Notes under the pieces: generated by a model
What the model was told of the DNA's origin: nothing
Databases searched by the model: none
The model's input: the letters and a program-made list of their open reading frames with translations, nothing else
Assembly: GCA_965116905.1 (NCBI GenBank)
Contig: OZ220732.1
Location: 704,001-768,000, forward strand
Source of the DNA: Longimicrobiales bacterium
GTDB taxonomy: Bacteria > Gemmatimonadota > Gemmatimonadetes > Longimicrobiales > Gaopeijiaceae
Reading direction: 5' to 3'
Length of the DNA stretch: 64,000 nt
Shown here: in pieces, positions 12,008 through 28,339 of the stretch
Position numbering within the stretch: the stretch's first letter is position 1
How the letters are laid out: the number at the start of each line of letters is the position of its first letter
Position numbers and translations under genes: made by a program

Positions 12008-13201
12008 ATGGGACTTCTAGCAACGCTCACGGGATCCAAAGCGGTCTCCCGAAAGCCAGTACCCGTGGGGTTCGCTGGCTCAGCCGTCCGTTGGTTTCTG
12101 GGACTGAGCGCGTTGTACGTCCTTTATGCTTCGGCCAACTTCGTCGGTTTCGCCGATGATCTCCGGATCGTCAACCGGCTCGGAATGGTGTTGGGACCCA
12201 CGATGGCGGCCTTGTCACTTCTGGTCGCGCCAGCCACCTTCGCGGCGGCAGCTGGCGACTCCGCCACCAAGGGGCGCGAGCGCGGAACTCTCCCCAAGCA
12301 AGTCGTGCGGTTGGTACTCCTCGCTCTAGGTGCCTATGCGTTGTACGGGGTTGGACCGCGGCTCAGTTCGGCCTTGCTGGTTGTGGAGGGCCGAGCCCCC
12401 ACCGTGGGCGCCACCTCGCAGATCGTGGACAGCGCTCGTTTCTGGGTGCCGAGCACAATCGCCATCTTCACTGTCCTCGCGGGTGTCGCGGGCGGGATTA
12501 CAAGCCGACTTGCGGAGTGGTGGAATCCCGGGCGGCGAGTCACGATGATGTGGTTGTCCTTTCTCGGCTTGTTCCTTTCCTTCTGGCTGCCGCTCCTGCT
12601 GACGACCAATATGATCCTGCACAGTGGCGTCGCACCCGCATGGATACTGCCAGGCTCTCTCCTGCTTCCCACTATTCTGATCGCAGGGATCGCCTGGTGG
12701 CAGGCCGAAGGTCTGCACCTACCGAATGTTCTTCGCCGTCGTCGAGGCCAGGACGGTCCGCACCACCGGCCCCGCCTCGACCGCGTAGACCGCGCCGTCA
12801 ATCCACCTGCTGACAGACCCGACGAGCCCGCCATTGCAGCGGCTACCGCCACCCGGGCCGAGCTGGAGATGATTCATCTGGCCAAGGGGATCCGCAGCGT
12901 GATCGGTCCCAGCGCCAATCTCTCACCGCAACGCGTGGACGAGATCGTCAACCGCTTGGTCGATGCTCCGCGGACTGAGGCAACCAGGCAGGAAGGGGCC
13001 CGGCGAGCACCTGACCGGATCCACCGACCGGCGACCGTGGGTCAATTCTGTACGAACTGGGCCTGCCTCGCGGCAGTCTTGCTGATGGTCGGGATGCTGG
13101 GTGGGGTGCCGCCCAATCTCGCATTGGCAGGGCTCGCGGGCTTGCTGGGGTCTGTCCTTATTCGGACGACAGCGGCCGGGACACTCAGCATGGCTCGGTA
13201 G
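12008..13201 (+). CDS. Multi-pass membrane protein with anti-sigma-like C-terminal part
   Basis: Several TM helices; by eye the N-part resembles 51832..52674 and the C-part resembles 53231..53686. Confidence 0.65.
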   Translation: MGLLATLTGSKAVSRKPVPVGFAGSAVRWFLGLSALYVLYASANFVGFADDLRIVNRLGMVLGPTMAALSLLVAPATFAAAAGDSATKGRERGTLPKQVVRLVLLALGAYALYGVGPRLSSALLVVEGRAPTVGATSQIVDSARFWVPSTIAIFTVLAGVAGGITSRLAEWWNPGRRVTMMWLSFLGLFLSFWLPLLLTTNMILHSGVAPAWILPGSLLLPTILIAGIAWWQAEGLHLPNVLRRRRGQDGPHHRPRLDRVDRAVNPPADRPDEPAIAAATATRAELEMIHLAKGIRSVIGPSANLSPQRVDEIVNRLVDAPRTEATRQEGARRAPDRIHRPATVGQFCTNWACLAAVLLMVGMLGGVPPNLALAGLAGLLGSVLIRTTAAGTLSMAR

Positions 13202-14045
13202 GGCTGGTCCCATTCGTGGTCCAGCCCCTCCTCTGCTCGCGCTGCAAGTCCGTCCTCACTTCCGGCAGCGCATCCGACTCATACTCAAGACCGGCGACAT
13301 CTCCGCAACGATCGGACCCGTAGTATTTGCGTCTGGTTGGGAGGAACTCAGGACTCTCGCAGCGGCGAACCCGGGCTCACCAGCGATCGTAGACCCCGAC
13401 CTCAACGGGATCGGCGCCCCGTGCGCCCTGGGCCAAGACGAGGGGCCTGGCCACCCTCAATACGCCCCCCCGGTGATCGAGTATCCGTGTTCGGACGCCC
13501 AGATGCGGTCGGTTTCGGACGAAACCGCGATTCCCGTGACGCGCGTGAAACAATGTGACGTCGGTGACATCCGTGCCCTGGAGCTCGCCATCCTCAAGAA
13601 CATCGACGCCGAACGGCTCCATCGACTGCTCACCCGCGCCGACGCACGGACTCCCGCGGGTGCCTCGCCCATTCTCCGTCTGTTTTTTTGGCGCGCGGTC
13701 GAACCATGCCGAGTCGGGGCCCTGGCCGCCGCTCTTGACGTGACGGAACGCACCCTGCTGCGCCGATGTCGTGGTCTGGGGATCGCCCGTCCCAAGGATC
13801 TGTGGGCGCTGGCTCGCGTCTTCGCGGTCGCACGGCTGCTCCATTGGAGCAAGCGGCCCTTGAGTTCCGTGGCCCTCGCCCTGGGGTTCTCGAATGACGC
13901 CAACTGCTACCGACTGCTACGTCGCATTCTGGGGAGGACCCTGTCGCGTGACATGACGAGGGACGACATGGATCGCGTCGAGGAGGTCATTCTGAGTGAG
14001 ATCGTCGGAACAAGCCGGACCGCGGGTGATCGCTCGGAGCAGTAA
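13101..14045 (+). CDS. AraC-family helix-turn-helix regulator (start uncertain)
   Basis: LAAALDVTERTLLRRC and SVALALGFSNDANCYRLLRR double HTH at the C-terminus. Confidence 0.75.
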   Translation: MGCRPISHWQGSRACWGLSLFGRQRPGHSAWLGRAGPIRGPAPPLLALQVRPHFRQRIRLILKTGDISATIGPVVFASGWEELRTLAAANPGSPAIVDPDLNGIGAPCALGQDEGPGHPQYAPPVIEYPCSDAQMRSVSDETAIPVTRVKQCDVGDIRALELAILKNIDAERLHRLLTRADARTPAGASPILRLFFWRAVEPCRVGALAAALDVTERTLLRRCRGLGIARPKDLWALARVFAVARLLHWSKRPLSSVALALGFSNDANCYRLLRRILGRTLSRDMTRDDMDRVEEVILSEIVGTSRTAGDRSEQ

Positions 14046-15059
14046 TCAGGTAGCCTCCACTGACGGCGATGGTTGATCCGGTTGCCCCGCACCATTGCCG
14101 ACACCCACCTCGCGGTTTTCGTGCTGCCGGAGGATTTCGGCTATTTCCGCTTTGATTCCTGGTTCTAACGAAATGAAGCCTGACTCCGATTCCTTTGGCT
14201 CGACGGCGACGAACCGGTTGAATTTCTCCCAGTACGACGGCAGGAATTCGTTCGCCTCATATGGCGACTGGATCCCAGCGTCGGCCAGTTCTTGCGGCAA
14301 GGCCTGGCGCAGGATTCGGAAAGAGCGCTTGTAGATGCTTCGGGCCCCAGGTCGGCATGAGGGTAGCACGTTGACGCCCAGTTTCCGCATCGCTTCAGAG
14401 AACCGGCCTGTTTCCCGACGGTCATCGTGATTCCGCAGCGCTCGACCTACGTGAATTGCGTGAAACAGCCCGTTGGATACGATGGTCTCATGGATGGTGC
14501 GAAACCGACACCAGATCGTCTCGCTTTCGACGAATAGTCCGGAGTGAACGCGATCACTCGCGTCATCGACCAGTGCCACCAACTCCCAGGTCCGCTTCGG
14601 CAACCACTGATAAGTGCAACCAGCCTGGTGAAGCAGTCGCCCCTCGGCGAGCTGCCGACCATCGCATTTTGGCGTCGACCGAGTGGAACGGCGTGGGGTC
14701 ACGAGGCCCGACTCGTGCAGATGATTCTTGGCCCAAGTGTATGACCGTGTACCCCCATGGGAGTCCCTGTACGCTCGGTAGAACTTGCGTACAGGCCATC
14801 CCCGGTACCGTTCCGCGTAGAGTGCTACCAACGCGGCAACTTCCTCGTCAGGTGCCCTTCGGGGATTCGTAGCCCGCCGATCTTCAAGCCCCTTCAGGCC
14901 CATTTCCCGGTACCTCGCGACGTATCGTCGGAAGGTCCGTTCAGAGATTCCCAAGAGGTATGCCGCGCGCGACTGACTGATATCACGGCTCGTCCACTGC
15001 TCATAGACCTCAGCAAATCTGGCCGTTCGCAGGTCGCGCATGGTAGATGTCTTGCTCAC
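14046..15059 (-). CDS. ISNCY/IS481-like transposase-derived protein with apparently substituted DDE triad
   Basis: HTH AAYLLGISERTFRRY, GTRSYTW, LVDDAS, LPQELADAGI...EANEFL; LHQAG, IHVGR and SIYKRSF occupy positions normally D, D and E. Confidence 0.75.
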   Translation of the reverse strand: MSKTSTMRDLRTARFAEVYEQWTSRDISQSRAAYLLGISERTFRRYVARYREMGLKGLEDRRATNPRRAPDEEVAALVALYAERYRGWPVRKFYRAYRDSHGGTRSYTWAKNHLHESGLVTPRRSTRSTPKCDGRQLAEGRLLHQAGCTYQWLPKRTWELVALVDDASDRVHSGLFVESETIWCRFRTIHETIVSNGLFHAIHVGRALRNHDDRRETGRFSEAMRKLGVNVLPSCRPGARSIYKRSFRILRQALPQELADAGIQSPYEANEFLPSYWEKFNRFVAVEPKESESGFISLEPGIKAEIAEILRQHENREVGVGNGAGQPDQPSPSVEAT

Positions 15060-16805: not shown

Positions 16806-18008
16806 TCAGGATCGCGCCGCTACCACCTCATAAACCACCACATTCTGCACGTCCATTTCGTCCCTGAGCACCCCCAACACCAGCCCTCCGGTCACATCGA
16901 GGATTCGGAACCTGGGCGGAGTCTCAACCTGTCCCAGCCACTCCCCATCCGCGGAAATGACCGTGTACGGCGACCCCTCTTCCGGGTAGGCCGGCCGGTA
17001 GGAGGGCAACCATACGTTTCCGTCGGCGTCGGCGAAGGGGGTACCGAAGAGCGGTATCGGCTGTCCGATCATGGCACGATACCGGGCCATATCTCCCTGA
17101 ATGATCTCCTCGAGTCGGGCCTCGGATACTTCGAAGTTCATCCGGCTGATCATTCGGGTGTAGGCCTCGCCGTGCTCCAGGAGTTCCCCGGTCAGCAGGT
17201 TGGGCCCGGGCTGCCAGCGCACGATCTGCTCTACCGTCCCGTCCGTCCGCCGCCAGGTGATCTCGGGCCTGTCGGTCCTGGTGTAGACGAACCGCCCCGC
17301 GGCGGTCGTGACCTCGCCACTCGGCCGGATGATCGGCCTCGGCTGTCCCGACCGCTGTCGCGGGACGTGGTCGTACGACGCGACCGTGTCGAGCGCGCCG
17401 GTCTCGGTATCGAACAGGGTGATGTGCCCGGCGAGCCACTCCTCCTCTATATCGACCCAGGAACGGTAGGCGTATCGGTTCCAGAGCAGCAGCTCACCGG
17501 ATGAACCGATCCCCGCCACACCGAACTGGTGTCCCCGAGGGAGGCTCACGATGCGCGCGACCGAACCGCCCACAAAGAGAGTGAGGCGAGACAGGCGATC
17601 ATCGGGCACAAGGACGCTGTCCTGGCCCAGGACGAACAACGAGTAAGCGGAAATGACTTCGCCCGGTCCTTCCCCACGGCTGGCGAGGACCTCGTACGTC
17701 GTCCCGTCCGGACTCAAGACGACCACCTCGCCAGACCAATCGGCAACGACCGCGCGTCCATCGGGGAAGAGCCGGCCGGCGTCGGCGAACTGGAAGATGT
17801 AGTCGCCTGGGCCGCCGCCGTGGCGGTAGATCGGCCCTCCCGCGATGGCGAAGGGCGGCTCGACCTCGGGCACGCCCGTATACTGCACGATCCGGGCGCC
17901 GGCGCTGTCCGAGATCTGGACCGGGATGTCACGTGTGCCGGCGCTGTCTCCTTCGCAGGCGCCGAGGGCTGCCGACAGCATCAGAGCGCACTCGTGTCTG
18001 CGTCGCAT
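16806..18008 (-). CDS. 6-bladed beta-propeller-type lipoprotein
   Basis: Lipobox LGAC, ISDSAGARIV, RGEGPGE and C-terminal VLGVLRDEMDVQNVVVY. Confidence 0.75.
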   Translation of the reverse strand: MRRRHECALMLSAALGACEGDSAGTRDIPVQISDSAGARIVQYTGVPEVEPPFAIAGGPIYRHGGGPGDYIFQFADAGRLFPDGRAVVADWSGEVVVLSPDGTTYEVLASRGEGPGEVISAYSLFVLGQDSVLVPDDRLSRLTLFVGGSVARIVSLPRGHQFGVAGIGSSGELLLWNRYAYRSWVDIEEEWLAGHITLFDTETGALDTVASYDHVPRQRSGQPRPIIRPSGEVTTAAGRFVYTRTDRPEITWRRTDGTVEQIVRWQPGPNLLTGELLEHGEAYTRMISRMNFEVSEARLEEIIQGDMARYRAMIGQPIPLFGTPFADADGNVWLPSYRPAYPEEGSPYTVISADGEWLGQVETPPRFRILDVTGGLVLGVLRDEMDVQNVVVYEVVAARS

Positions 18009-18071
18009 TTCAATTCACCCGCTACCTAGTGCCTGTTTGGACAAGCGACAGCAAGTCCCCCGGTACTCTAC

Positions 18072-19562
18072 TCAAGTGATCACCGTCACCTGTGTCAAGG
18101 CCGCGCGGGCCGAAGAGATATCACCCCCCGCCATCGCCTCAATGAGGTCGGCCACCCATTCCGGCACCCCGAGGTCCAGCAAGAAACCGATGAAGGTCGC
18201 GTGGCAGTTAGGGTTGAGATGGGACAGAGCGGCCGTGGGCACCAAGGTGTTCAACAGCACGCGCGAGGCGGCGTAGTAGTCGTCGTCAAAATCCCAGACG
18301 CCGCTCGTGATACGCTGCTTCCGGAAGAAACCGGGAGTAGTCCAGGTACTGAGCACCGGCATCAAGTGTTCGTCTTTTCCCACACGGATCGCTGCCTCGA
18401 AATCGATGAGCCGAATGTCCCAACTATCGGCATCAACCATCACGTTGTTGCTGGACAGATCCGATATGATCACCCCACGGGCGTGGATTGCCTCGATGGC
18501 ATCGAGAAGCGACTCGGAGAGTCGATGGAACTTCGGTTGGATGTCGTTGAATGACATGCCGTTCCGCGCGTGGGGAAGCCACAAATTTTCAGGCTGACCG
18601 GCGGCAGTCCTCAGCATTACGCCTTGGATCTTCTCTGCCGCCATGAATAAGTGCTCCCACTCCCTGAAAAGCTTGATCGGGCGCACGGTGCAGTCCAATC
18701 CCTCTAGGTGTCGCAATACGTCGAACTCGTGCTCAAGGAGCAAATGGGAATCTATGGTGGCCGTTCCCCGCGTCGTCCGGTGCACGTGCGGTCGAGCCTC
18801 CTTGATAACGACCGTGCTCCCGGATTCCAGATCGATGGCTTCGTACACGCCCCCCCTGTTGTTGGCGGAGATCATCGCCGTGACCTCGAACGAGCCGCCG
18901 ATCACCGCTCCGTCGTCTTCTTCGCCGGACTCCTCGAAGGGATCTTCAACCCACGGCGGAAGCGAAAAAAATGCTTGGCGCTGGTCCCGCATCTCGCTCC
19001 CGTCCGGCCCCGTCAACACGGTGACCTCGAATCCGTCGGGCGTGAGTCGGCTTCGGGGCCTCATCCCTCCGTAGCGATAATACAGGACTTTGCTGTCTTT
19101 GTACCGTCGATCAGAGAGGATATACTGGCCTACAAAGTCCTTCCCTGCAGTCTCTTTGTACAGAGTCTCGAGCAGATTCAGGAATGCCTCATGGTTCGGT
19201 GGATAGATTGTTATGAACTTGCCTCCGCCACCCCGATCACGGTTTTTGCCGTTTTGGAATTCGAGAAGCTCAGGGCCGGCGGTGCATTTGAACGAAATGT
19301 CGCGTGCGACACATACTCTCGTCACGAGCCCTAAGAGCTCCTTTGCGCAATCAGGAATGCTAGAGACGTGGATCTTGAATCCCTGCTCAGGCACTTGGTG
19401 GACGAAGCGGTCGACCTGCAACCAGATATCGTGACGGCGGACATGCCACCCCGATTCCGGCAGGTATGATAGCACCTCATCCCGGAAATCACTCCGGACC
19501 GGCGCGAGAGCCGGCGCCTCGTACCATTGCTTGCTCGCTAACTGGTGCGCGTTTCTACTCAC
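18072..19562 (-). CDS. Class III lanthipeptide synthetase lyase+kinase subunit (LanKC lacking the cyclase domain)
   Basis: Lyase motifs QGFKIHVS, GKFITIYP and ILSDRRY...YYRYGG; kinase motifs NRGGVYEA...VVIKEARPH, HARGVIISDLSSNNV and LIDFEAA. The stop falls right after the kinase domain. Start at GTG 19562 is inferred; the ORF track starts at 19700. Confidence 0.88.
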   Translation of the reverse strand: MSRNAHQLASKQWYEAPALAPVRSDFRDEVLSYLPESGWHVRRHDIWLQVDRFVHQVPEQGFKIHVSSIPDCAKELLGLVTRVCVARDISFKCTAGPELLEFQNGKNRDRGGGGKFITIYPPNHEAFLNLLETLYKETAGKDFVGQYILSDRRYKDSKVLYYRYGGMRPRSRLTPDGFEVTVLTGPDGSEMRDQRQAFFSLPPWVEDPFEESGEEDDGAVIGGSFEVTAMISANNRGGVYEAIDLESGSTVVIKEARPHVHRTTRGTATIDSHLLLEHEFDVLRHLEGLDCTVRPIKLFREWEHLFMAAEKIQGVMLRTAAGQPENLWLPHARNGMSFNDIQPKFHRLSESLLDAIEAIHARGVIISDLSSNNVMVDADSWDIRLIDFEAAIRVGKDEHLMPVLSTWTTPGFFRKQRITSGVWDFDDDYYAASRVLLNTLVPTAALSHLNPNCHATFIGFLLDLGVPEWVADLIEAMAGGDISSARAALTQVTVIT

Positions 19563-19581
19563 GACGCTGGGATGTGAAGGG

Positions 19582-20748
19582 TCACGAGGTGACGATCGCC
19601 GATGGTGGACACTCGACGTCGCCCACAAGATCGACGAATGGATTAGCGGTCGGCTGGAGCAGCCGTTGAAAGAAAAGCCCCACTCCAGCAGTACCAGCAA
19701 CGATATCGTTGCTGATCCGAGACAACCAGCGATCCGGATACGCGAACCCTTCGGGCCGGGGAATCCGATACAGCAGCAACGTTCGAGCGATGTCGGCGCA
19801 CCGATCGAGATACTCCTCTTTCCCCGTAGCGATGAAACAGTCGAGCATGTATTCGCCTATGCCGGTGAGTCCGCTTTCGAGGCCCGGCTGAATGGTCCAA
19901 ATCGATGCAGTTGCCTCAGCGATCGTCTCTGCAATCTCGAGATAGCGACGGTCGCCCAGTCCTAAAGACATTCGTAGCGCAACCCCCCCAATTCCCACAG
20001 CACCGCTTCCCCAATACGGAAGCACGACATTGCCCCCGGCGTACGCCGGCCATGTCCATCCGTGAGAGCCATCCCGCCGATGCGCAAAATCGAACTCGAA
20101 GGCCTTGATCGCCGACTCGACGAAGCGATCCTCCCCTGCCGTGTGACCGGCGAGCATGAGAAACAGTCCAACCCCGCTGGCGCCGAATCCATAGCCAAGA
20201 GGAGCCTCCTCGCCAGACATCGGAGCCCAGGTCAGGCCAAGTTCCTCACGGATGGCCGTCTTCACCAGCCACTGGGCAGCGGAAACGGCCCCTTCCAGAT
20301 ACTCTTGCCGCTGGGTCTTTTCGAAGAAGTACAGGCTCGTCATTCCCCAGCCAGCGTCACCGTGGAACATGGACGCTTCCGAGTGACGTAGCGGAGAGGA
20401 GTAGCTCAACGATATTGCCTCCTCCGCCTTTCTCGTCATGCCCAGTTCGGACAAGCAGTATCCGATTCCCGCCAAACCTAGCCAATAACCAGGAGCATAT
20501 CTGTCCGTACTCAAGTGTTGTCGCTCAATCCACTTGACCGTAGGGGCCGCTAATCCTCTCCCCACACGATATAGGAACAGCGCAGGTCCAACGGCTCCGT
20601 GGGCCAAGCTCATGGGGTTTGTACCGAACACTTCAACACCCGCTGGCCATAGGCGATCCGTTCGCTCCGGCGTTGCCGTGGCTTCAACGTAGTCCGCCAT
20701 GCCGTCCAGTGTCTGGCGGATGTCCTCTTTCAACTCGCTTGGGATCAT
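19582..20748 (-). CDS. Stand-alone LanC-like cyclase of class III type (no zinc-binding Cys)
   Basis: ATATPERTDRLWP, SLAHGAVG, LPYWGSGAVG, PGLESGLTG and RISNDIVAGTAGV resemble the LanKC cyclase domain; WCxG/CHG zinc motifs are absent. Confidence 0.85.
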   Translation of the reverse strand: MIPSELKEDIRQTLDGMADYVEATATPERTDRLWPAGVEVFGTNPMSLAHGAVGPALFLYRVGRGLAAPTVKWIERQHLSTDRYAPGYWLGLAGIGYCLSELGMTRKAEEAISLSYSSPLRHSEASMFHGDAGWGMTSLYFFEKTQRQEYLEGAVSAAQWLVKTAIREELGLTWAPMSGEEAPLGYGFGASGVGLFLMLAGHTAGEDRFVESAIKAFEFDFAHRRDGSHGWTWPAYAGGNVVLPYWGSGAVGIGGVALRMSLGLGDRRYLEIAETIAEATASIWTIQPGLESGLTGIGEYMLDCFIATGKEEYLDRCADIARTLLLYRIPRPEGFAYPDRWLSRISNDIVAGTAGVGLFFQRLLQPTANPFVDLVGDVECPPSAIVTS

Positions 20749-20840
20749 TGCATTCCGTAAAAAAGGCGTTCGTACCCAACAAGGCAGCCGCAGCCTGCCG
20801 CCAGGTGACGTTAGACGGGCTTGGATACCGGCGTGAGCCA

Positions 20841-20886
20841 CCTGCACCGCGGGGTGAAACCGAAGAACCGACCGCCGCGGTGCAGG
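20841..20886 (-). other. Stem-loop between precursor and cyclase genes
   Basis: 12-bp perfect inverted repeat CCTGCACCGCGG/CCGCGGTGCAGG with CTTCGG in the loop region on the minus strand. Confidence 0.7.
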
Positions 20887-20909
20887 GTGAACTCACGCAA
20901 CCGGGGCAA

Positions 20910-21053
20910 CTAGTTGTCGCCGGTATCGTTGCAGTGGATGCTGATCTCGGACGGCTCCATTTCGCCGCAGTAATAGCTGTACTTACTGTCGACCAAGGCC
21001 GTCGGGTCGTCCTGCGCGACGCTCAGACGCTGCAAGCCGAGGATCCTGCTCAT
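20910..21053 (-). CDS. Class III lanthipeptide precursor (47 aa)
   Basis: Manual translation MSRILGLQRLSVAQDDPTALVDSKYSYYCGEMEPSEISIHCNDTGDN*; AAGGAG RBS; ILGLQ leader and two S-x2-S-x2-C motifs. Confidence 0.9.
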   Translation of the reverse strand: MSRILGLQRLSVAQDDPTALVDSKYSYYCGEMEPSEISIHCNDTGDN

Positions 21054-21460
21054 GGTGTACTCCTTACCGCAGGGGTTCACTTAGTCAAGCTCCACAGCGG
21101 AACTCAACTCCAGGCGATCCGGCTCCAACTGGAAACCTAGTCTGAATCACCTGACGCAATGCTAACCTCCAGGGACCTGCTCCGCAAGTTGTTGGCAGGT
21201 TGTGTGTTAGGAGCATATCCATTGTCCGGTCACGCGAGCAAATAGCGTGGCCGGTCCTGGGGGATCCAAGGCTACGCACTTGGAATCCACAGGCGGATAC
21301 TGGCGCTCGATCTGGGCTATGCTGAAGCACGACTTCCGACCTCTACCTGGTGAGCGCCCGACACGTTAAGCAGGTCCTCGGCCGCAAGACGGGCGTAGGG
21401 ACTGCGAGTGGCTCGCGCAGCTTCTGGAGTGCGAGCTGCTCGAGAGCAAGTTGGAGCTCG

Positions 21461-23338
21461 CTAGCGATACCCAGCCGCTTGAAGGGCGAACAGTTCGGCG
21501 TACTGACCTTCGGCATCCATGAGCACTTCGTGGCTGCCTTGTTCGAATACCGATCCATCTCTGAGGACGATGATGCGGTCGGCCATTCTCACGGTCGAGA
21601 ACCGGTGACTGATCAGAACGCCGATTCTGCTCGAAACGAGATCCGAGAACCGTTGGAAGACCTCGTACTCCGCTCGGGCGTCCAGGGCAGCGGTTGGCTC
21701 GTCGAGAATCACTATCTGCGCGTCGCGCATGTATGCGCGGGCGAGAGCGATCTTCTGCCACTCGCCACCCGAGAGTTCAGCACCCGACTGGAAACGACGG
21801 CCTAGCAGTTGCTCATACCCATTCTCCAGTCCACTGATGACGCGGGCGGCCAAGCTCTTCTCGGCTGCGGCCACTACCCGGGCCATGTCGTTGTCGGCCG
21901 CAACGCACCCCACTGCAATGTTCTCGCGTGCTTTCAAGTCGTAGCAGAAGAAGTCCTGGAGGATGACTCCGAATGCTCCCCTCAAGGACTCCAGATCGTA
22001 CAGCTTGAGATCCCTTCCGTCTAACAGGATCCGGCCCTCCGTCGGATCATAAAGACGAGTCATGAGCTTCACCAATGTCGTCTTTCCTGCCCCATTCTCT
22101 CCGACTAGTGCAACGCATTCCCCCGGAGAGATTTCGAGCGATACATCACGGAGGGCCCATCGCTCGGACCCAGCGTATCGGAACCCGACGTTCTCGAACA
22201 CCAGACCACGTCGAATGGGATTGGATACGATTATTGCGTTCACCGGAGAGACAATCGTTGAACGAACCTCGAAAAACTCAAAGAGATCTTTGACAAACAG
22301 CCCCTGCTCGTAACCTTGCGCGACCCCCATCAAGATCCCGGTGATCAAAGTGCGACTACGCTGGAAAGCCCCGGTCAGGAATGCGAGCGTCCCAATGGTA
22401 ATGATGCCCATCGCGGCTTCGTAGACGATCGTGGCCACGGCGCCGTAGTAAGCCAACGTGGATACCGACGCCAACAGAATGCCGGTAACAGTACGACTCG
22501 TGGCAACTCGACGGTGTTCGGCAATGTAGTCGTTTGCCAATGTCGAATACCTGTCGGCCAAATGTTCGGATAGACCGAAGAGCTTAATCTCCTTTGCTGG
22601 CAGGATATCGGTTGCGAGCCATCTGTAGTATGCCAACTCTCGGCGCTCTCGCGTCCACTGAAACATGAATGAGTAGGTGATTCCAGCGTACTTGGCCTCA
22701 CCGAGCACCGCTGGTAGCGTCGCCAACAAGAGAATAAGGAGCAGCCAAGGCTGGAAGGCGATGATTGCGGCAAGGAGAGACATCACCGTTACCGACTGCT
22801 GGCCGATCGTTAGAACCTGGGACAGTAGAGTGACGCGTCGGGACGTATGCACCCTCGCTCGCAAGAGCTTGTCGAAGAAGCTCGGATCTTCCAGCCTCTC
22901 TAGGTCAAGCACTCCGGCGTGACGCATCAAACGCACGGACAACTCGTTCGTGAAAAGTTCGCCTAGAAGATTCTCAAGCAGGCTTCCGATGCGTTGCAAC
23001 ACGTCCGACAGAAGGGCGATCGCCAACTCGAGTAGCACGAGCTTGATCAACAGTCCCCAGTTCAGAGGTGGCGACTGGACGCTGACGACGACGGCGTCGA
23101 TGATGAGCTTGCCTACCCACAGCATCGCGATTGGCATGAGCCCGACTAGTACGCGAACGGTCACGATTCCCAATGCGTAAGTGGGCTTAGTCGACCAGAC
23201 CAGCTTTACGAAGCGGGCGATGCTGCGAAGGGCCGCGAGCCGCTCCTTGATCGGCGGTATCGGCCGACCGTCACGGGTCCTAGGCCGATAAAAGGCGCCC
23301 GGCGTCACGGCAAGTGCTCGGGTGCCGTGGTGGCGCAC
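21461..23338 (-). CDS. ABC exporter, fused permease/ATPase (LanT-like by context)
   Basis: TM domain, GENGAGKTT, LSGGEWQKIALARA, ILDEPTAALD and ISHRFSTVR. Confidence 0.92.
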   Translation of the reverse strand: MRHHGTRALAVTPGAFYRPRTRDGRPIPPIKERLAALRSIARFVKLVWSTKPTYALGIVTVRVLVGLMPIAMLWVGKLIIDAVVVSVQSPPLNWGLLIKLVLLELAIALLSDVLQRIGSLLENLLGELFTNELSVRLMRHAGVLDLERLEDPSFFDKLLRARVHTSRRVTLLSQVLTIGQQSVTVMSLLAAIIAFQPWLLLILLLATLPAVLGEAKYAGITYSFMFQWTRERRELAYYRWLATDILPAKEIKLFGLSEHLADRYSTLANDYIAEHRRVATSRTVTGILLASVSTLAYYGAVATIVYEAAMGIITIGTLAFLTGAFQRSRTLITGILMGVAQGYEQGLFVKDLFEFFEVRSTIVSPVNAIIVSNPIRRGLVFENVGFRYAGSERWALRDVSLEISPGECVALVGENGAGKTTLVKLMTRLYDPTEGRILLDGRDLKLYDLESLRGAFGVILQDFFCYDLKARENIAVGCVAADNDMARVVAAAEKSLAARVISGLENGYEQLLGRRFQSGAELSGGEWQKIALARAYMRDAQIVILDEPTAALDARAEYEVFQRFSDLVSSRIGVLISHRFSTVRMADRIIVLRDGSVFEQGSHEVLMDAEGQYAELFALQAAGYR

Positions 23339-23510: not shown

Positions 23511-23744
23511 CTACGACGAGACAACGAAGGAACGATCCGTGCAGAACCCAAAAGCGACCGCAACACCGGAACACGCGCAACCCCTTGGCTTGCTACACTG
23601 CTTGTCTCGAGAAATGCAACTATCGCCGCACGGCTTCCCCGTTCGGCAGACCCGGCAACATGACGTTGTTGGCTCCGTCGTCGTACAGGACGCGGAACCG
23701 AAGACCAACAGCATTGCGAGGGCCACAATGACGGGTGCCTTCAT
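23511..23744 (-). CDS. Small Cys-rich lipoprotein-like peptide
   Basis: AGGAGG RBS, ATG at 23744, lipobox-like GSASC, then CCRVCRTGKPCGDSCISRDKQCSKPRGCAC. Confidence 0.72.
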   Translation of the reverse strand: MKAPVIVALAMLLVFGSASCTTTEPTTSCCRVCRTGKPCGDSCISRDKQCSKPRGCACSGVAVAFGFCTDRSFVVSS

Positions 23745-23880
23745 CAGTCTGGAGCCTCCTGCCGTACGTGAGCGCAATCCGGACATCCGAAGTGTCGGCC
23801 GCCGGCCAGTCGCGCCTGCCTGATATAGACCAGAACCCCCGATTCGCCGGGGCCGCTTCCCCCTATGGACATCACGTACT

Positions 23881-25050
23881 TCAACTAGAGGGCACGGTGT
23901 GCCGCTTTGGATTCGAGACGGCATGGACATCCTCGTCCCGCACGCTCAACCTCGCGATGCGCCAAGGGGGGAAGTCCTTGTTGATCAGCAAGTAGAGAAA
24001 CCGTCCTCCCCCCAGAACCACAGAGTTTTCGGGCAGCGGCACGTCCTGATACAGCCCGGTACCAGTGTGGCGGTCATAAAGGTCAATCAGCACATGAGAC
24101 CACCGGAATGCCGTTCCTTGTGTCGCGTCATAGGTGGCCCTCGTAAACATGAGGTGGCGTTCAACCACATCGATTCGGTGAATGAATTCGAAACTGGCCA
24201 GGAAGTCACCAAACGAGGCGCCGTAGGCCTCGGAGCCCGCGAGAGCGCCTCCCTCCAACACCGGGATCGGCCGAAACGACTCTGAAGGCTCACCAATCAC
24301 GCCCACGGTATCTCCGTCAACGTTGAGGATCGTCGCAGGAAAACGGGCACCCGACATCGCGTAGATGGAGTCACCGCCGACCGCAATCGGCGTTCCCACC
24401 ATCGAACTCCAGTATGGCCTCTCATGTGTGAGGAACGGGTAGTTGAAGCCGCTCCAAGCCAGCTCCGCGCCGATGAGCCGATGAAGGATGGGCGGGCGGC
24501 CGCGCGAATCAAACCATGTTTCGTGATCAGCAGCCCGCGTCATACGTACTATCAGGTCCGGGCCCATCGCGATCACGCTCGTGGCCGGTCCAGGTATTGG
24601 CAACAGTGTGTCCGACTGCAGGTCACTGGTCAGGTAAGTCAGGTTCGACTGCAGAGAGTTCGGTACCACGATTGCGCCGGAAGCCGTTTCGGCAACACTG
24701 TTGATCCAGCGGAATTCGAAAGGACCGTCGCCGAATCTGCCAAACGATGCGACCAATCGACCGTTCTCGGCGTAGCGCCGAATCCTTGGCAGGAGATTGT
24801 CGCCAACAACGAAGCCTCCGTCCCGAAGCTCCGCAAAGGCGCCGATTTCGGCGATGGAATCGCCTGGGTCTTCTTGTAGTTCGATAACGTCCTCGACTTC
24901 GAACACCTGCTCGAAGGTCGCCGAGACCGGCTCCAAGTCGTCCGTGGACTCCGCTGCCTGCCCGCAAGCCACGAGCAGCGACGCAATTGGGATCGCAGAT
25001 AGGCAGCACTGGCGTGCCGGCCCACGACGGTCGTTCAAGACCGACATCAA
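23881..25050 (-). CDS. 6-bladed beta-propeller-type lipoprotein
   Basis: Lipobox LVAC and FGRFGDGPFEF motif. Confidence 0.75.
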   Translation of the reverse strand: MMSVLNDRRGPARQCCLSAIPIASLLVACGQAAESTDDLEPVSATFEQVFEVEDVIELQEDPGDSIAEIGAFAELRDGGFVVGDNLLPRIRRYAENGRLVASFGRFGDGPFEFRWINSVAETASGAIVVPNSLQSNLTYLTSDLQSDTLLPIPGPATSVIAMGPDLIVRMTRAADHETWFDSRGRPPILHRLIGAELAWSGFNYPFLTHERPYWSSMVGTPIAVGGDSIYAMSGARFPATILNVDGDTVGVIGEPSESFRPIPVLEGGALAGSEAYGASFGDFLASFEFIHRIDVVERHLMFTRATYDATQGTAFRWSHVLIDLYDRHTGTGLYQDVPLPENSVVLGGGRFLYLLINKDFPPWRIARLSVRDEDVHAVSNPKRHTVPSS

Positions 25051-26143: not shown

Positions 26144-27490
26144 TCACCCCCCCACCACCACCCGGCTCACCACCAGCGTCGCCACATCGAACTCATCGCT
26201 CTCCAGATGCGCCACGAGCCCATCGGGTCCGAACGCGATCGGCATCGCCGGCTCCCCGGCCGACAGCGTCCCCACGTATTCCCGGTCCGCGTTGTACACG
26301 TCGATCGGCCCCTCGTCGTCCCACGGATTCTCACTGCGGCGCTGGATCCACAGCCCGCCGTCCCAGGTCGCCCTGATCCCCTGAACCACGGGGACTTCGT
26401 GGTAGAATTCGCGATCCCGAATTCTTCGGCGGCTCTGCTCGGGGTCCCTACCGATCGGCAGGCTCGTAGAGGGAGGAGTCGCCAACCACTCCTCAAGACG
26501 CTGAAGGTGGAAGGCGATCGTTCCCCGCCGGATCCGTTCCGACACCGCCTCCGGCAAGAGCGGCCGGCTCAGCACCTCGGTCACCGATCCATCGGGCGAG
26601 GTGAGCTTGATGACGTACGCCGAGGAGTCGGAATAGGCGATGGTGCCGTCGGGCAACACGTCCCAGTGAAACCCCGGCTCAAAGTACCGGTCCTCTACGG
26701 CCGCGACGATCGCCGGCCAGTCCTCCAGGCTCGTGGATGTTGGCGGCTCGGGACGCGGAGCCCGCCAACCCTGCAAAACCGGCTCCCTTGCGGTCACATC
26801 GCCGGAGAGGTCCAGCGCCTCGAGCGCGCGGTCATCGACGCCATCCGTTTCCTCGTCCGGGTACTCCATGAGCCGGTTCATGAAGTTCATCATCTCGACC
26901 AACACGCCCTCGACGCCGCGAGCGATAATCCTGTCGCCCAGCGGATCGGCCCGAATCTCCTCGTGACGAAGCGCGGTGGACAGCGTTCTTGGCTCGCTGG
27001 CCGACCTGACGAACCGCTCGAGTTCGCCGTCCGGGCTGAACACCTGGACCGCCGAATGCTCCGTGTCGGGCACCGCAAAGCGGCCGTCGCGCCACACCGC
27101 GAGCGCCCGTATTTCCTGAAACTCGCCCGGGCCCTCGCCCTCGCGGCCCACGACACGCACAAGCCGGCCATCGGGTCCGACGACGACGACCCGCTTGTTG
27201 AAGGCGTCCAGCACGAGCAGGTTGCCGGCTCCGTCGAAGCTCGCCTGCAAGGCAGGGACCGGCCCGAAGAGGGCCCACTCCGGCGCGTTCACGCCGCCCG
27301 CTCGATACACCTCGGTCACGTCCACGGTCAGCGGACGGTCCTGCGCGGCGGACGCGGTGGGGAGGATGGGGGCAAGGGAGAGGGTCAGGGCAATGGCCAG
27401 GGTCTGGGCCAGAGCCAGGGTCTGGGTCGAGCAAACGGCCGGGGCCTGCGCCAAGCCAATATGCACGGGAGGCGACAGGCGGTGTTTCAC
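26144..27490 (-). CDS. 6-bladed beta-propeller-type secreted protein
   Basis: Signal peptide, VGREGEGPGEF and C-terminal AFGPDGLVAHLESDEFDV. Confidence 0.8.
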   Translation of the reverse strand: MKHRLSPPVHIGLAQAPAVCSTQTLALAQTLAIALTLSLAPILPTASAAQDRPLTVDVTEVYRAGGVNAPEWALFGPVPALQASFDGAGNLLVLDAFNKRVVVVGPDGRLVRVVGREGEGPGEFQEIRALAVWRDGRFAVPDTEHSAVQVFSPDGELERFVRSASEPRTLSTALRHEEIRADPLGDRIIARGVEGVLVEMMNFMNRLMEYPDEETDGVDDRALEALDLSGDVTAREPVLQGWRAPRPEPPTSTSLEDWPAIVAAVEDRYFEPGFHWDVLPDGTIAYSDSSAYVIKLTSPDGSVTEVLSRPLLPEAVSERIRRGTIAFHLQRLEEWLATPPSTSLPIGRDPEQSRRRIRDREFYHEVPVVQGIRATWDGGLWIQRRSENPWDDEGPIDVYNADREYVGTLSAGEPAMPIAFGPDGLVAHLESDEFDVATLVVSRVVVGG

Positions 27491-27619
27491 CAGGTTGGCT
27501 GTCCTTTATGTGCGTGGCTGGAGCAGCTGGAGTTGGGGACTCGGGAATCTATCGTATCGGCTTGACTGGTTCGTGCCGAAATAATATGATGAATCGCATT
27601 TGAGATACAGGAGGTTCGC

Positions 27620-27901
27620 GTGAAGACGCAGAGTTCGATGGTGCATGTCCGGATGGACACCGAGATGAAACGGAAGGCGACGGCAGCGCTCGCGGCGATG
27701 GGCCTGACGGCTTCACAGGCCGTGCGGCTCCTGTTCCATCGCATTGCCGTCGATCAGGCTTTCCCGCTCGAACTGAAGGTTCCAAACGCGGAAACACGGG
27801 CGGCCATGGCCGAAGTTGACGAGATGATCAACACGCGCGCGGCGCGATTCGCAAGCGCGGACGAGATGTTTGCGGAGCTTGAAGACGCCTCCGACCGGTA
27901 A
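27620..27901 (+). CDS. dinJ: RelB/DinJ-family antitoxin, copy 1
   Basis: VHVRMDTEMKRKA...MGLTASQAVRL...PLELKVPNAET. Confidence 0.88.
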   Translation: MKTQSSMVHVRMDTEMKRKATAALAAMGLTASQAVRLLFHRIAVDQAFPLELKVPNAETRAAMAEVDEMINTRAARFASADEMFAELEDASDR

Positions 27902-28205
27902 GCGGGCCAAACCGCCACGCCGGGTTGACTACTCCCGACGGTTCCTAAAGGACTGGAAGCGCCTCTCGCGTTCGGGTCGATACGACATGCACCGGCTGAA
28001 GGCGGTCATGCTCCTCCTCATCGCCAACGACACCCCGCTCGGTCCTGAATGGAGGGATCACGCGCTCAAAGGCTCATGGGCTCCCTACCGCGAATGCCAC
28101 GTCGGCGGTGACTTTCTGCTCATCTATCGCATCGACGACACAGACGGGCCGAGCGGTTCCGTCTACTTTGCCCGGGCCGGTACGCATGCCCAGTTGTTCG
28201 AATGA
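27870..28205 (+). CDS. yafQ: YafQ-family mRNA interferase toxin, copy 1
   Basis: FLKDWKRL, DHALKGSW..YRECHVGGDFLLIY and RAGTHAQLF. Confidence 0.88.
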   Translation: MRSLKTPPTGKRAKPPRRVDYSRRFLKDWKRLSRSGRYDMHRLKAVMLLLIANDTPLGPEWRDHALKGSWAPYRECHVGGDFLLIYRIDDTDGPSGSVYFARAGTHAQLFE

Positions 28206-28339
28206 CGACCGCTGACACTTCGGTCAGAACCGACAGCCTCGGCGGCATCGCGAGTCGCTGCCAGGAATCTGTACTCGCCGGGACCGCCGCGCGCACCATG
28301 GCCCGATTTGGAGCACATGGTCTGGCGTCCGCGACCAGG

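Follow-up and report, generated by a model that had tools for sequence, protein, structure and literature searches.

The window, a 64,000-nucleotide stretch of contig OZ220732.1 of a Longimicrobiales bacterium, contains a unit of four genes, all on the minus strand, for an ABC exporter, a peptide precursor, a stand-alone cyclase, and a stand-alone lyase-kinase. The exporter gene (21461..23338) encodes, from its first GTG, a 625 aa protein comprising permease and ATPase (Pfam ABC_tran, E 4e-34; ABC_membrane, weak), with no peptidase family among the Pfam matches listed for it. The precursor gene (20910..21053) encodes 47 aa plus stop (MSRILGLQRLSVAQDDPTALVDSKYSYYCGEMEPSEISIHCNDTGDN, translation of 21053..20910) and is preceded, 6 nt 5' of the ATG, by a ribosome-binding site read in the sequence, TAAGGAG (21060..21066, minus strand). 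The cyclase gene (19582..20748) encodes a 388 aa stand-alone cyclase of the zinc-free, class III type (P0003; LANC_like, E 8e-23), and the lyase-kinase gene (18072..19562), which starts 19 nt past the cyclase stop, encodes a 496 aa stand-alone protein from a GTG at 19562 (P0050; RamC_N, E 8e-56, plus Pkinase). The region 17900-21600 is present in two assembled contigs from two studies with no differing bases or gaps, and either contig may be the source of the window.

The block that the window has in common with a related locus, L002, is exactly the four genes, including an exporter gene that is 87% identical and in the same position (dN/dS 0.13). Three minus-strand ORFs that flank the cluster (16806-18008, 23881-25050, and 26144-27490; 389-448 aa, with signal-like N-termini) were considered as cluster members and rejected: they lie outside the common block, and two of them (16806-18008 and 26144-27490, the latter with a weak beta-propeller match) have paralogues elsewhere in the genome. 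Also outside the common block, just upstream of the exporter gene, is a 139-aa ORF (23511-23930, minus strand) with a Cys-rich C-terminal part, no Pfam match, and one weak NCBIfam match below cut-off. The wider surroundings contain an AraC-type HTH gene (13101-14045, plus strand), an IS481-like HTH ORF (14046-15059) with apparent transposase fragments beyond it, to 16646, and a stretch (27561-28206) that recurs, at 89% identity, some 14 kb farther on in the genome (G000:C1 745723-746370); an ORF within the duplicated stretch (27870-28205) is, by eye, presumably of the YafQ toxin-antitoxin type. There is no protease gene within the cluster, and peptidase matches in the genome (3 M1, 9 M16) are too common for the leader protease to be picked from them. 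The genome contains no second close copy of either synthetase half and one weak LanC-like match elsewhere (G000:C1 2346897-2347421; 32% over 177 aa, E 1.5e-4).

The G+C content of the block is 55-60%, vs. 67.7% for the genome. Of 52 further genomes of the genus, one, which carries L002, has a close cluster; when 400 more genomes sampled from the phylum were searched, the L002-bearing genome came up again, together with a more distant split system, G382. The combination of patchy occurrence and low G+C content suggests that the cluster has spread horizontally.

Directly 3' of the precursor stop is a long, G+C-rich hairpin having no U tract (20831..20902, approximate ends, minus strand; z −3.42, with 0 of 200 shuffles as stable). 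A hairpin follows the precursor stop in all seven stretches that were folded, with differing sequences and with z of −2.65 to −4.18 relative to shuffles. The hairpin likely serves to stabilise precursor mRNA or to limit read-through. A scan for promoters and terminators gave a yield no greater than that for shuffled sequence. A stretch of about 40 nt 5' of the precursor gene (about 21075-21116, minus strand) differs hardly at all between the window, L001, and L002, with divergence farther upstream, and is possibly a promoter or regulator site. In a further related locus, L003, an ORF at about 1003-1413 that by eye is AraC-type regulator-like lies directly 5' of the precursor gene, with transposase-like ORFs ahead of it.

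The precursor and its relatives

The first-pass annotation had proposed an ORF at 20910..21053, giving no strand, with a class III (I/L)LxLQ leader and two S-x2-S-x2-C motifs in a net acidic core. The ORF is real: it is on the minus strand, has 47 codons plus stop, and has a good ribosome-binding site. The leader motif is ILGLQ at residues 4-8, in the form described in PMC8169954, and the core motifs are SKYSYYC at residues 23-29 and SEISIHC at residues 35-41, each S-x2-S-x2-C, giving a skeleton of S23, S26, C29, P34, S35, S38, H40, and C41 with an acidic tail. The segment from Ser23 contains 3 Tyr and has a computed net charge of −4 and GRAVY of −1.04.

The background set for assessing chance occurrence comprised the 26,948 ATG-started ORFs of 25-80 aa in the 4.2 Mb genome, with nested starts taken separately. 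LxLQ within the first 20 residues occurs in 30 of these ORFs, 4 of which also contain any [ST]xx[ST]x2-5C motif; the combination of LxLQ and two SxxSxxC motifs occurs in the precursor alone. Irrespective of leader, the two-fold SxxSxxC motif has 9 occurrences among the 8.4 million six-frame codons of the genome. A 173-codon open frame on the other strand overlaps the precursor gene, and GC3 is 0.89 for the precursor frame vs. 0.54 for the opposite-strand frame. The match of the precursor to NCBIfam lanthi_III_b is weak (E 0.0076; 16 bits, not reaching the cut-off of 30), and a Pfam scan of the precursor gave no match.

Four related precursors are available for comparison: those of L001 and L002, which are identical (MSRVLRLQRLKVSRDHSLGFVHSGISDHCTDMHPSGVSDHCCATGQE), that of L003 (MARILRLQTLSVSTQHSLGFLQSNDSDHCSGWSPSAVSNHCCVQAD), and P0049 (MSRILGLQRLSVSKDDPTALVDSNLSICCGGVLPSVVSVHCGGTGDD), a peptide record with a longest contig equal in length to that of cyclase P0006. 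All eight skeleton residues are present in 5/5 precursors, with both Ser-Ser-Cys motifs at the same positions; the length (46-47 aa) and the gene position are kept; and skeleton codons show synonymous changes. The proposed acidity extends to the family, with a net charge from Ser23 of −2 to −4 in 5/5 precursors. The proposed Tyr-richness applies to the window peptide and was rejected as a family trait, the cores of 4/4 relatives having no Tyr. A third Cys is present in the precursors of all four relatives and not in the window precursor, and the P0049 core is hydrophobic. Outside the skeleton, the core changes rapidly: for 17 variable core codons compared between window and L002, pN is 0.57 and pS is 0.47, vs. 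pN of 0.07-0.09 for the enzymes. This change is relaxed or selected, 17 codons being too few to decide; positive selection was rejected as a conclusion, the ratio of 1.4 over 17 codons not being significant and the skeleton positions having been picked after viewing the alignment. We conclude that the window peptide adds one more member to an established precursor type.

A synthetase divided between two genes

The locus encodes a class III LanKC that is split, with the cyclase gene first and the lyase-kinase gene second, and the two halves match complementary parts of NF038151: that is, model positions 483-831 for the cyclase (E 3e-63; class IV model, 8e-52) and model positions 4-445 for the lyase-kinase (E 9e-118), with the class IV model, NF038150, scoring lower in both cases. 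The cut-off of NF038151 is 575 bits, and both halves score below it (395 and 214). The first-pass annotation was right in placing modifying enzymes next to the precursor, and left unmentioned the two-gene split, the more unusual feature. Its proposal of a class III-type precursor modified by those enzymes is supported by the gene context, by the skeleton that the four relatives keep, and by the lyase and kinase residues described below, all of them intact.

In the lyase-kinase, the positions of the eight lyase residues of ThurKC are taken by K63, H65, K92, K106, K115, D151, R163, and R195, in an alignment that assumes an inferred three-residue offset between PDB and paper numbering. In 47 aligned homologues, seven of these residues are invariant and K106 is nearly so, and the kinase residues K254, E279, D368, N373, and D387 are invariant (47/47). 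The predicted model of the lyase-kinase has pLDDT 90.5, with CuvL and ThurKC as the best fold matches, and dN/dS relative to L002 is 0.16.

The AlphaFold model of the cyclase has pLDDT 83.5, with residues 30-52 and 288-291 low, and its best Foldseek matches are ThurKC structures 8sao and 8sam (TM 0.72-0.73). The zinc-ligand positions of the cyclase are occupied by G247, E291, and S292, which makes the cyclase class III-like; across 29 rows, the three zinc-ligand columns contain no Cys, and His occurs at one column in one row. Five polar residues, R29, D31, R32, R344, and D348, are invariant in 29/29 sequences. ThurKC residues D771, F770, R610, and D667, each of which is required for labionin in ThurKC according to PMC10604976, align to S292, E291, F128, and F188 and thus are not kept in the window cyclase. 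The same source describes sequence conservation of such cyclase residues as poor, and therefore their loss does not exclude cyclase activity. With the ThurKC labionin residues lost and other polar residues invariant, the ring chemistry is unreadable from sequence. The cyclase has dN/dS 0.18 relative to L002 (pS 0.37-0.39 for the three large genes).

To determine gene order we used 2 genome loci, 67 metagenome loci, and G382, obtained by DNA pattern or genome search with no length filter. Nine loci carry both halves of the window's clade as separate genes. The order precursor-cyclase-kinase is found in L001, L002, and L003, with the exporter gene in front in L002; the order kinase-then-cyclase is found in L005, L006, L017, and L019; and in L004 and L081 the kinase gene is first and a transporter-like gene lies between the halves. 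Because L001 and L002 share one precursor sequence and 96% identity, they count nearly as one; L001 is on a 3.2-kb contig labelled Bryobacterales, a label that could be a binning error. In many of the other fetched loci the enzyme is an ordinary fused one, near 900 aa in length, or the LanC-like protein is unrelated. ILxLQ-type precursors with different cores are present in the kinase-first loci L004, L006, L017, L019, and L081; none was seen in L005, the contig of which begins within the kinase gene. Two kinase-then-cyclase split systems occur about 2.7 kb apart in L006 (2908-6176 and 8906-11101, the second cyclase cut by the locus end). L010 (3395-6128) shows another break, in which a 228-aa lyase stands by itself and overlaps a 705-aa ORF for kinase plus cyclase, either by frameshift or as a true split.

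A cyclase-kinase fusion hidden by a frameshift was considered and rejected, since cyclase stop and kinase start are separated by 19 nt in both the window and L001 and by 3 nt in L003, and overlap in L002. We conclude that the split is no frameshift, since the cyclase-first order is impossible by frameshift, both halves are under purifying selection, and nine other split loci and stand-alone clades exist.

Trees built with FastTree and with LG+G4 place the stand-alone cyclases in one group nested among fused LanKCs (33 of 117 rows, support 98, FastTree; 26 of 48 chosen rows, 85/99, IQ-TREE LG+G4), within which the cyclase-first group has support of 100/100. The stand-alone lyase-kinases likewise form one group nested among fused LanKCs (45 of 138 rows, support 99). 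Length limits were applied to the database proteins of the trees (cyclase, 212-678 aa; kinase, 272-868 aa), and fused clade members could be missing as a result; some of the proteins may be contig fragments. The next wider group includes L057, a fused enzyme, and more than one fission or a re-fusion is therefore possible. Stand-alone halves are recorded in S. virginiae, S. venezuelae, S. exfoliatus, S. avidinii, and Myxococcaceae, several on contigs of 7-9 Mb; both halves are recorded in Streptomyces sp. NPDC006459, with 156,640 bases given for the longest contig of each, which suggests that they are on one contig. Among viral contigs, 30 pattern matches included no relatives; among plasmids, five records had 27-32% identity, and both annotated ones were named lanKC. 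In a relative on a 4.23 Mb contig, P0034 (581 aa), cyclase residues 127-219 are fused in frame to almost the whole lyase-kinase, which looks like an internal deletion that removed the cyclase end.

The natural break (496 + 388) matches the point at which ThurKC has been cut artificially (486/487, giving 1-486 and 487-872). According to PMC10604976, the artificial halves modified substrate only when both were mixed and formed no stable complex; CcaM, an enzyme with a class III cyclase domain, was inactive when split, according to PMC10676384. A search of the open-access literature, with most subscription journals outside its reach, found no report of a natural split LanKC. The precursor type itself is known; what sets the system apart is the conserved, reordered two-gene synthetase.

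Proposed pathway, known systems, and alternative explanations

Four of five testable defining features of class III are present: an LxLQ leader, S-x2-S-x2-5-C motifs, a lyase plus Ser/Thr kinase with catalytic residues, and a LanC fold free of zinc ligands; the fifth, a single-chain LanKC, is absent. The Cys-Cys-His zinc site that defines class IV (LanL) is absent; the separate LanK and LanY that define class V are absent, lyase and kinase being one 496-aa protein; and class I does not apply, there being no LanB family in the 12 neighbouring proteins scanned and no zinc ligands in the cyclase. The class IV LanL enzymes (CuvL, 8car and 8cav; VenL; SgbL) have a homologous lyase-kinase, CuvL being the top fold match for that of the window, but are single chains with Cys-Cys-His zinc ligands where the window cyclase has G247, E291, and S292. 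The class VI enzymes are kinase-cyclases that lack a lyase. The cores of labyrinthopeptin, curvopeptin, SapB, and erythreapeptin are mostly hydrophobic.

Class V (LanK, LanY, LanX, some with a cyclase) and class VI (LanKCb) resemble the window system in departing from the three-domain single chain; in class V, kinase and lyase are separate, whereas in the window RamC_N and Pkinase are fused and the cyclase is the separate part (PMC12328550). ThurKC/AncKC and andalusicin (PDB 8sam, 8sao, 8sap; PMC10604976 and PMC8169954) share with the window the LxLQ leader, the S-x2-S-x2-C motifs, the lyase and kinase catalytic residues, and a zinc-free toroidal cyclase, and ThurKC is the best fold match of the window cyclase and among the best for the lyase-kinase. 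Going by the same sources, ThurKC differs in being one 872-residue chain, vs. two genes, cyclase first, at the window locus, and the window differs from ThurKC/andalusicin in having one two-motif precursor, no methyltransferase, and an acidic core. Labyrinthopeptin (LabKC), curvopeptin (CurKC), SapB (RamC), and erythreapeptin, as described in PMC8341899, have two S-x2-S-x2-5-C core motifs, an ILELQ-like leader, and a cluster without a protease, and differ in having fused LanKCs and Actinomycetota producers; for these systems, as for the window, labionin vs. lanthionine is unpredictable from the motif. Noursin, the product of NorKC, is alike in having a class III enzyme with a divergent cyclase and a His in the core, and differs in having a single-chain enzyme, one Cys, a Thr-His crosslink, and an S9 protease in the cluster (PMC10206099).

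With a probability of about 0.8, we conclude that the window contains a real precursor in a four-gene unit and that its product would be dehydrated and cyclised to a two-ring lanthipeptide of the class III type by a natural two-protein synthetase. Sequence shows directly that the four genes are there, that the synthetase is split, with lyase and kinase residues intact and zinc ligands missing, and that the Ser/Cys skeleton is fixed; the steps that follow are modelled on ThurKC, CurKC, and LabKC. The lyase-kinase would bind the ILGLQ leader, phosphorylate S23, S26, S35, and S38, and eliminate phosphate, with loss of four H2O, to which T44 may add one. The separate cyclase would then dock in trans and add C29 and C41 to dehydroalanines, yielding two rings. 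The ABC transporter would export the peptide, and a protease encoded elsewhere in the genome probably would cleave the leader.

An alternative account holds that the lyase-kinase makes dehydroalanines and that the cyclase is an activator or partner, with rings forming spontaneously or not at all. The loss of the ThurKC catalytic positions from the window cyclase fits this account, as do published descriptions of the CcaM class III cyclase domain as required for dehydration and forming no ring (PMC10676384) and of ThurKC dehydration as needing the ThurKC cyclase (PMC10604976); the canonical S-x2-S-x2-C spacing of Cys29 and Cys41 in 5/5 precursors and the five invariant polar residues of the cyclase nevertheless make it very unlikely. 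Quite unlikely, in turn, is a variant compatible with the main explanation, in which a noursin-like His crosslink or metal binding operates and His40 plus acidic residues form the functional core. His40 is present in 5/5 precursors of the cyclase-first group, all of them acidic, and the divergent class III cyclase of noursin forms a His-to-butyrine link in a product that binds copper (PMC10206099); however, the Thr-derived residue of noursin is three positions before the His, whereas the precursors here have His40 within their second Ser-Ser-Cys motif and lack a conserved Thr.

Two further alternatives question the locus itself. The patchy occurrence of the cluster, its low G+C content, the transposase-like remnants close by, and the resemblance of the relative P0034 to a deletion product could indicate a broken or mis-assembled LanKC in a decaying cluster. 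This explanation is already largely refuted and has little probability left: a frameshift could not place the cyclase before the kinase, two contigs are identical base for base, the two halves have dN/dS of 0.16-0.18, nine further loci are split, and stand-alone halves make up whole clades. Hardly credible at all is the explanation that the precursor ORF is a chance reading, or that the true substrate is another peptide; the weak family score and the overlapping 173-codon opposite frame would allow it, but the motif combination is unique in the genome, the relatives keep position, length, and skeleton with synonymous changes at skeleton codons, and GC3 favours the precursor frame.

Returning to modification by the two-protein synthetase, the label 'labionin-type' in the first-pass annotation holds as a name for the motif and not for the product: in some systems such a motif ends as lanthionine with a dehydroalanine left free, according to PMC8341899 and PMC8169954, and the window cyclase lacks the ThurKC residues that labionin needs. 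For the product of this locus, lanthionine rings plus a free internal dehydroalanine are the outcome we would place first, at a little below even odds; labionins or a mixture are a real possibility, placed second; and other chemistry is unlikely. The role might, tentatively, be that of a signal specific to the strain, or of a competition peptide with a narrow target, more than that of a membrane-active antibiotic, a doubtful assignment that follows from the acidic core and from non-skeleton residues changing several times faster than the enzymes.

Implications of a naturally free cyclase

How zinc-free class III cyclases activate cysteine, and how lanthionine or labionin is chosen, remain unsolved. 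Work has been slowed by the difficulty of obtaining a lone class III cyclase domain (PMC9828337), and ThurKC cyclase mutations disturb dehydration too (PMC10604976). With a naturally free cyclase, dehydration and ring closure would be separable and separately mutable, and halves could be swapped between systems. The same split is carried by cultured Streptomyces, and testing therefore is independent of the genome of uncultured type studied here. In a large survey, classes III and IV were assigned only with kinase and cyclase in one protein, and 1,392 LanC-like proteins were left unclassified (bioRxiv 2020.03.13.990614); under this one-protein rule, split systems would fall among those 1,392 proteins.

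We see an even prospect that the locus represents an undescribed, widespread lanthipeptide subclass in which a lyase-kinase acts with a free, zinc-independent cyclase having active-site residues of its own. Such a subclass would have arisen by fission of LanKC, followed by a later reshuffle to the cyclase-first order, would have been missed by one-protein mining rules, and would produce an acidic two-ring peptide that combines a fixed skeleton with a fast-changing surface.
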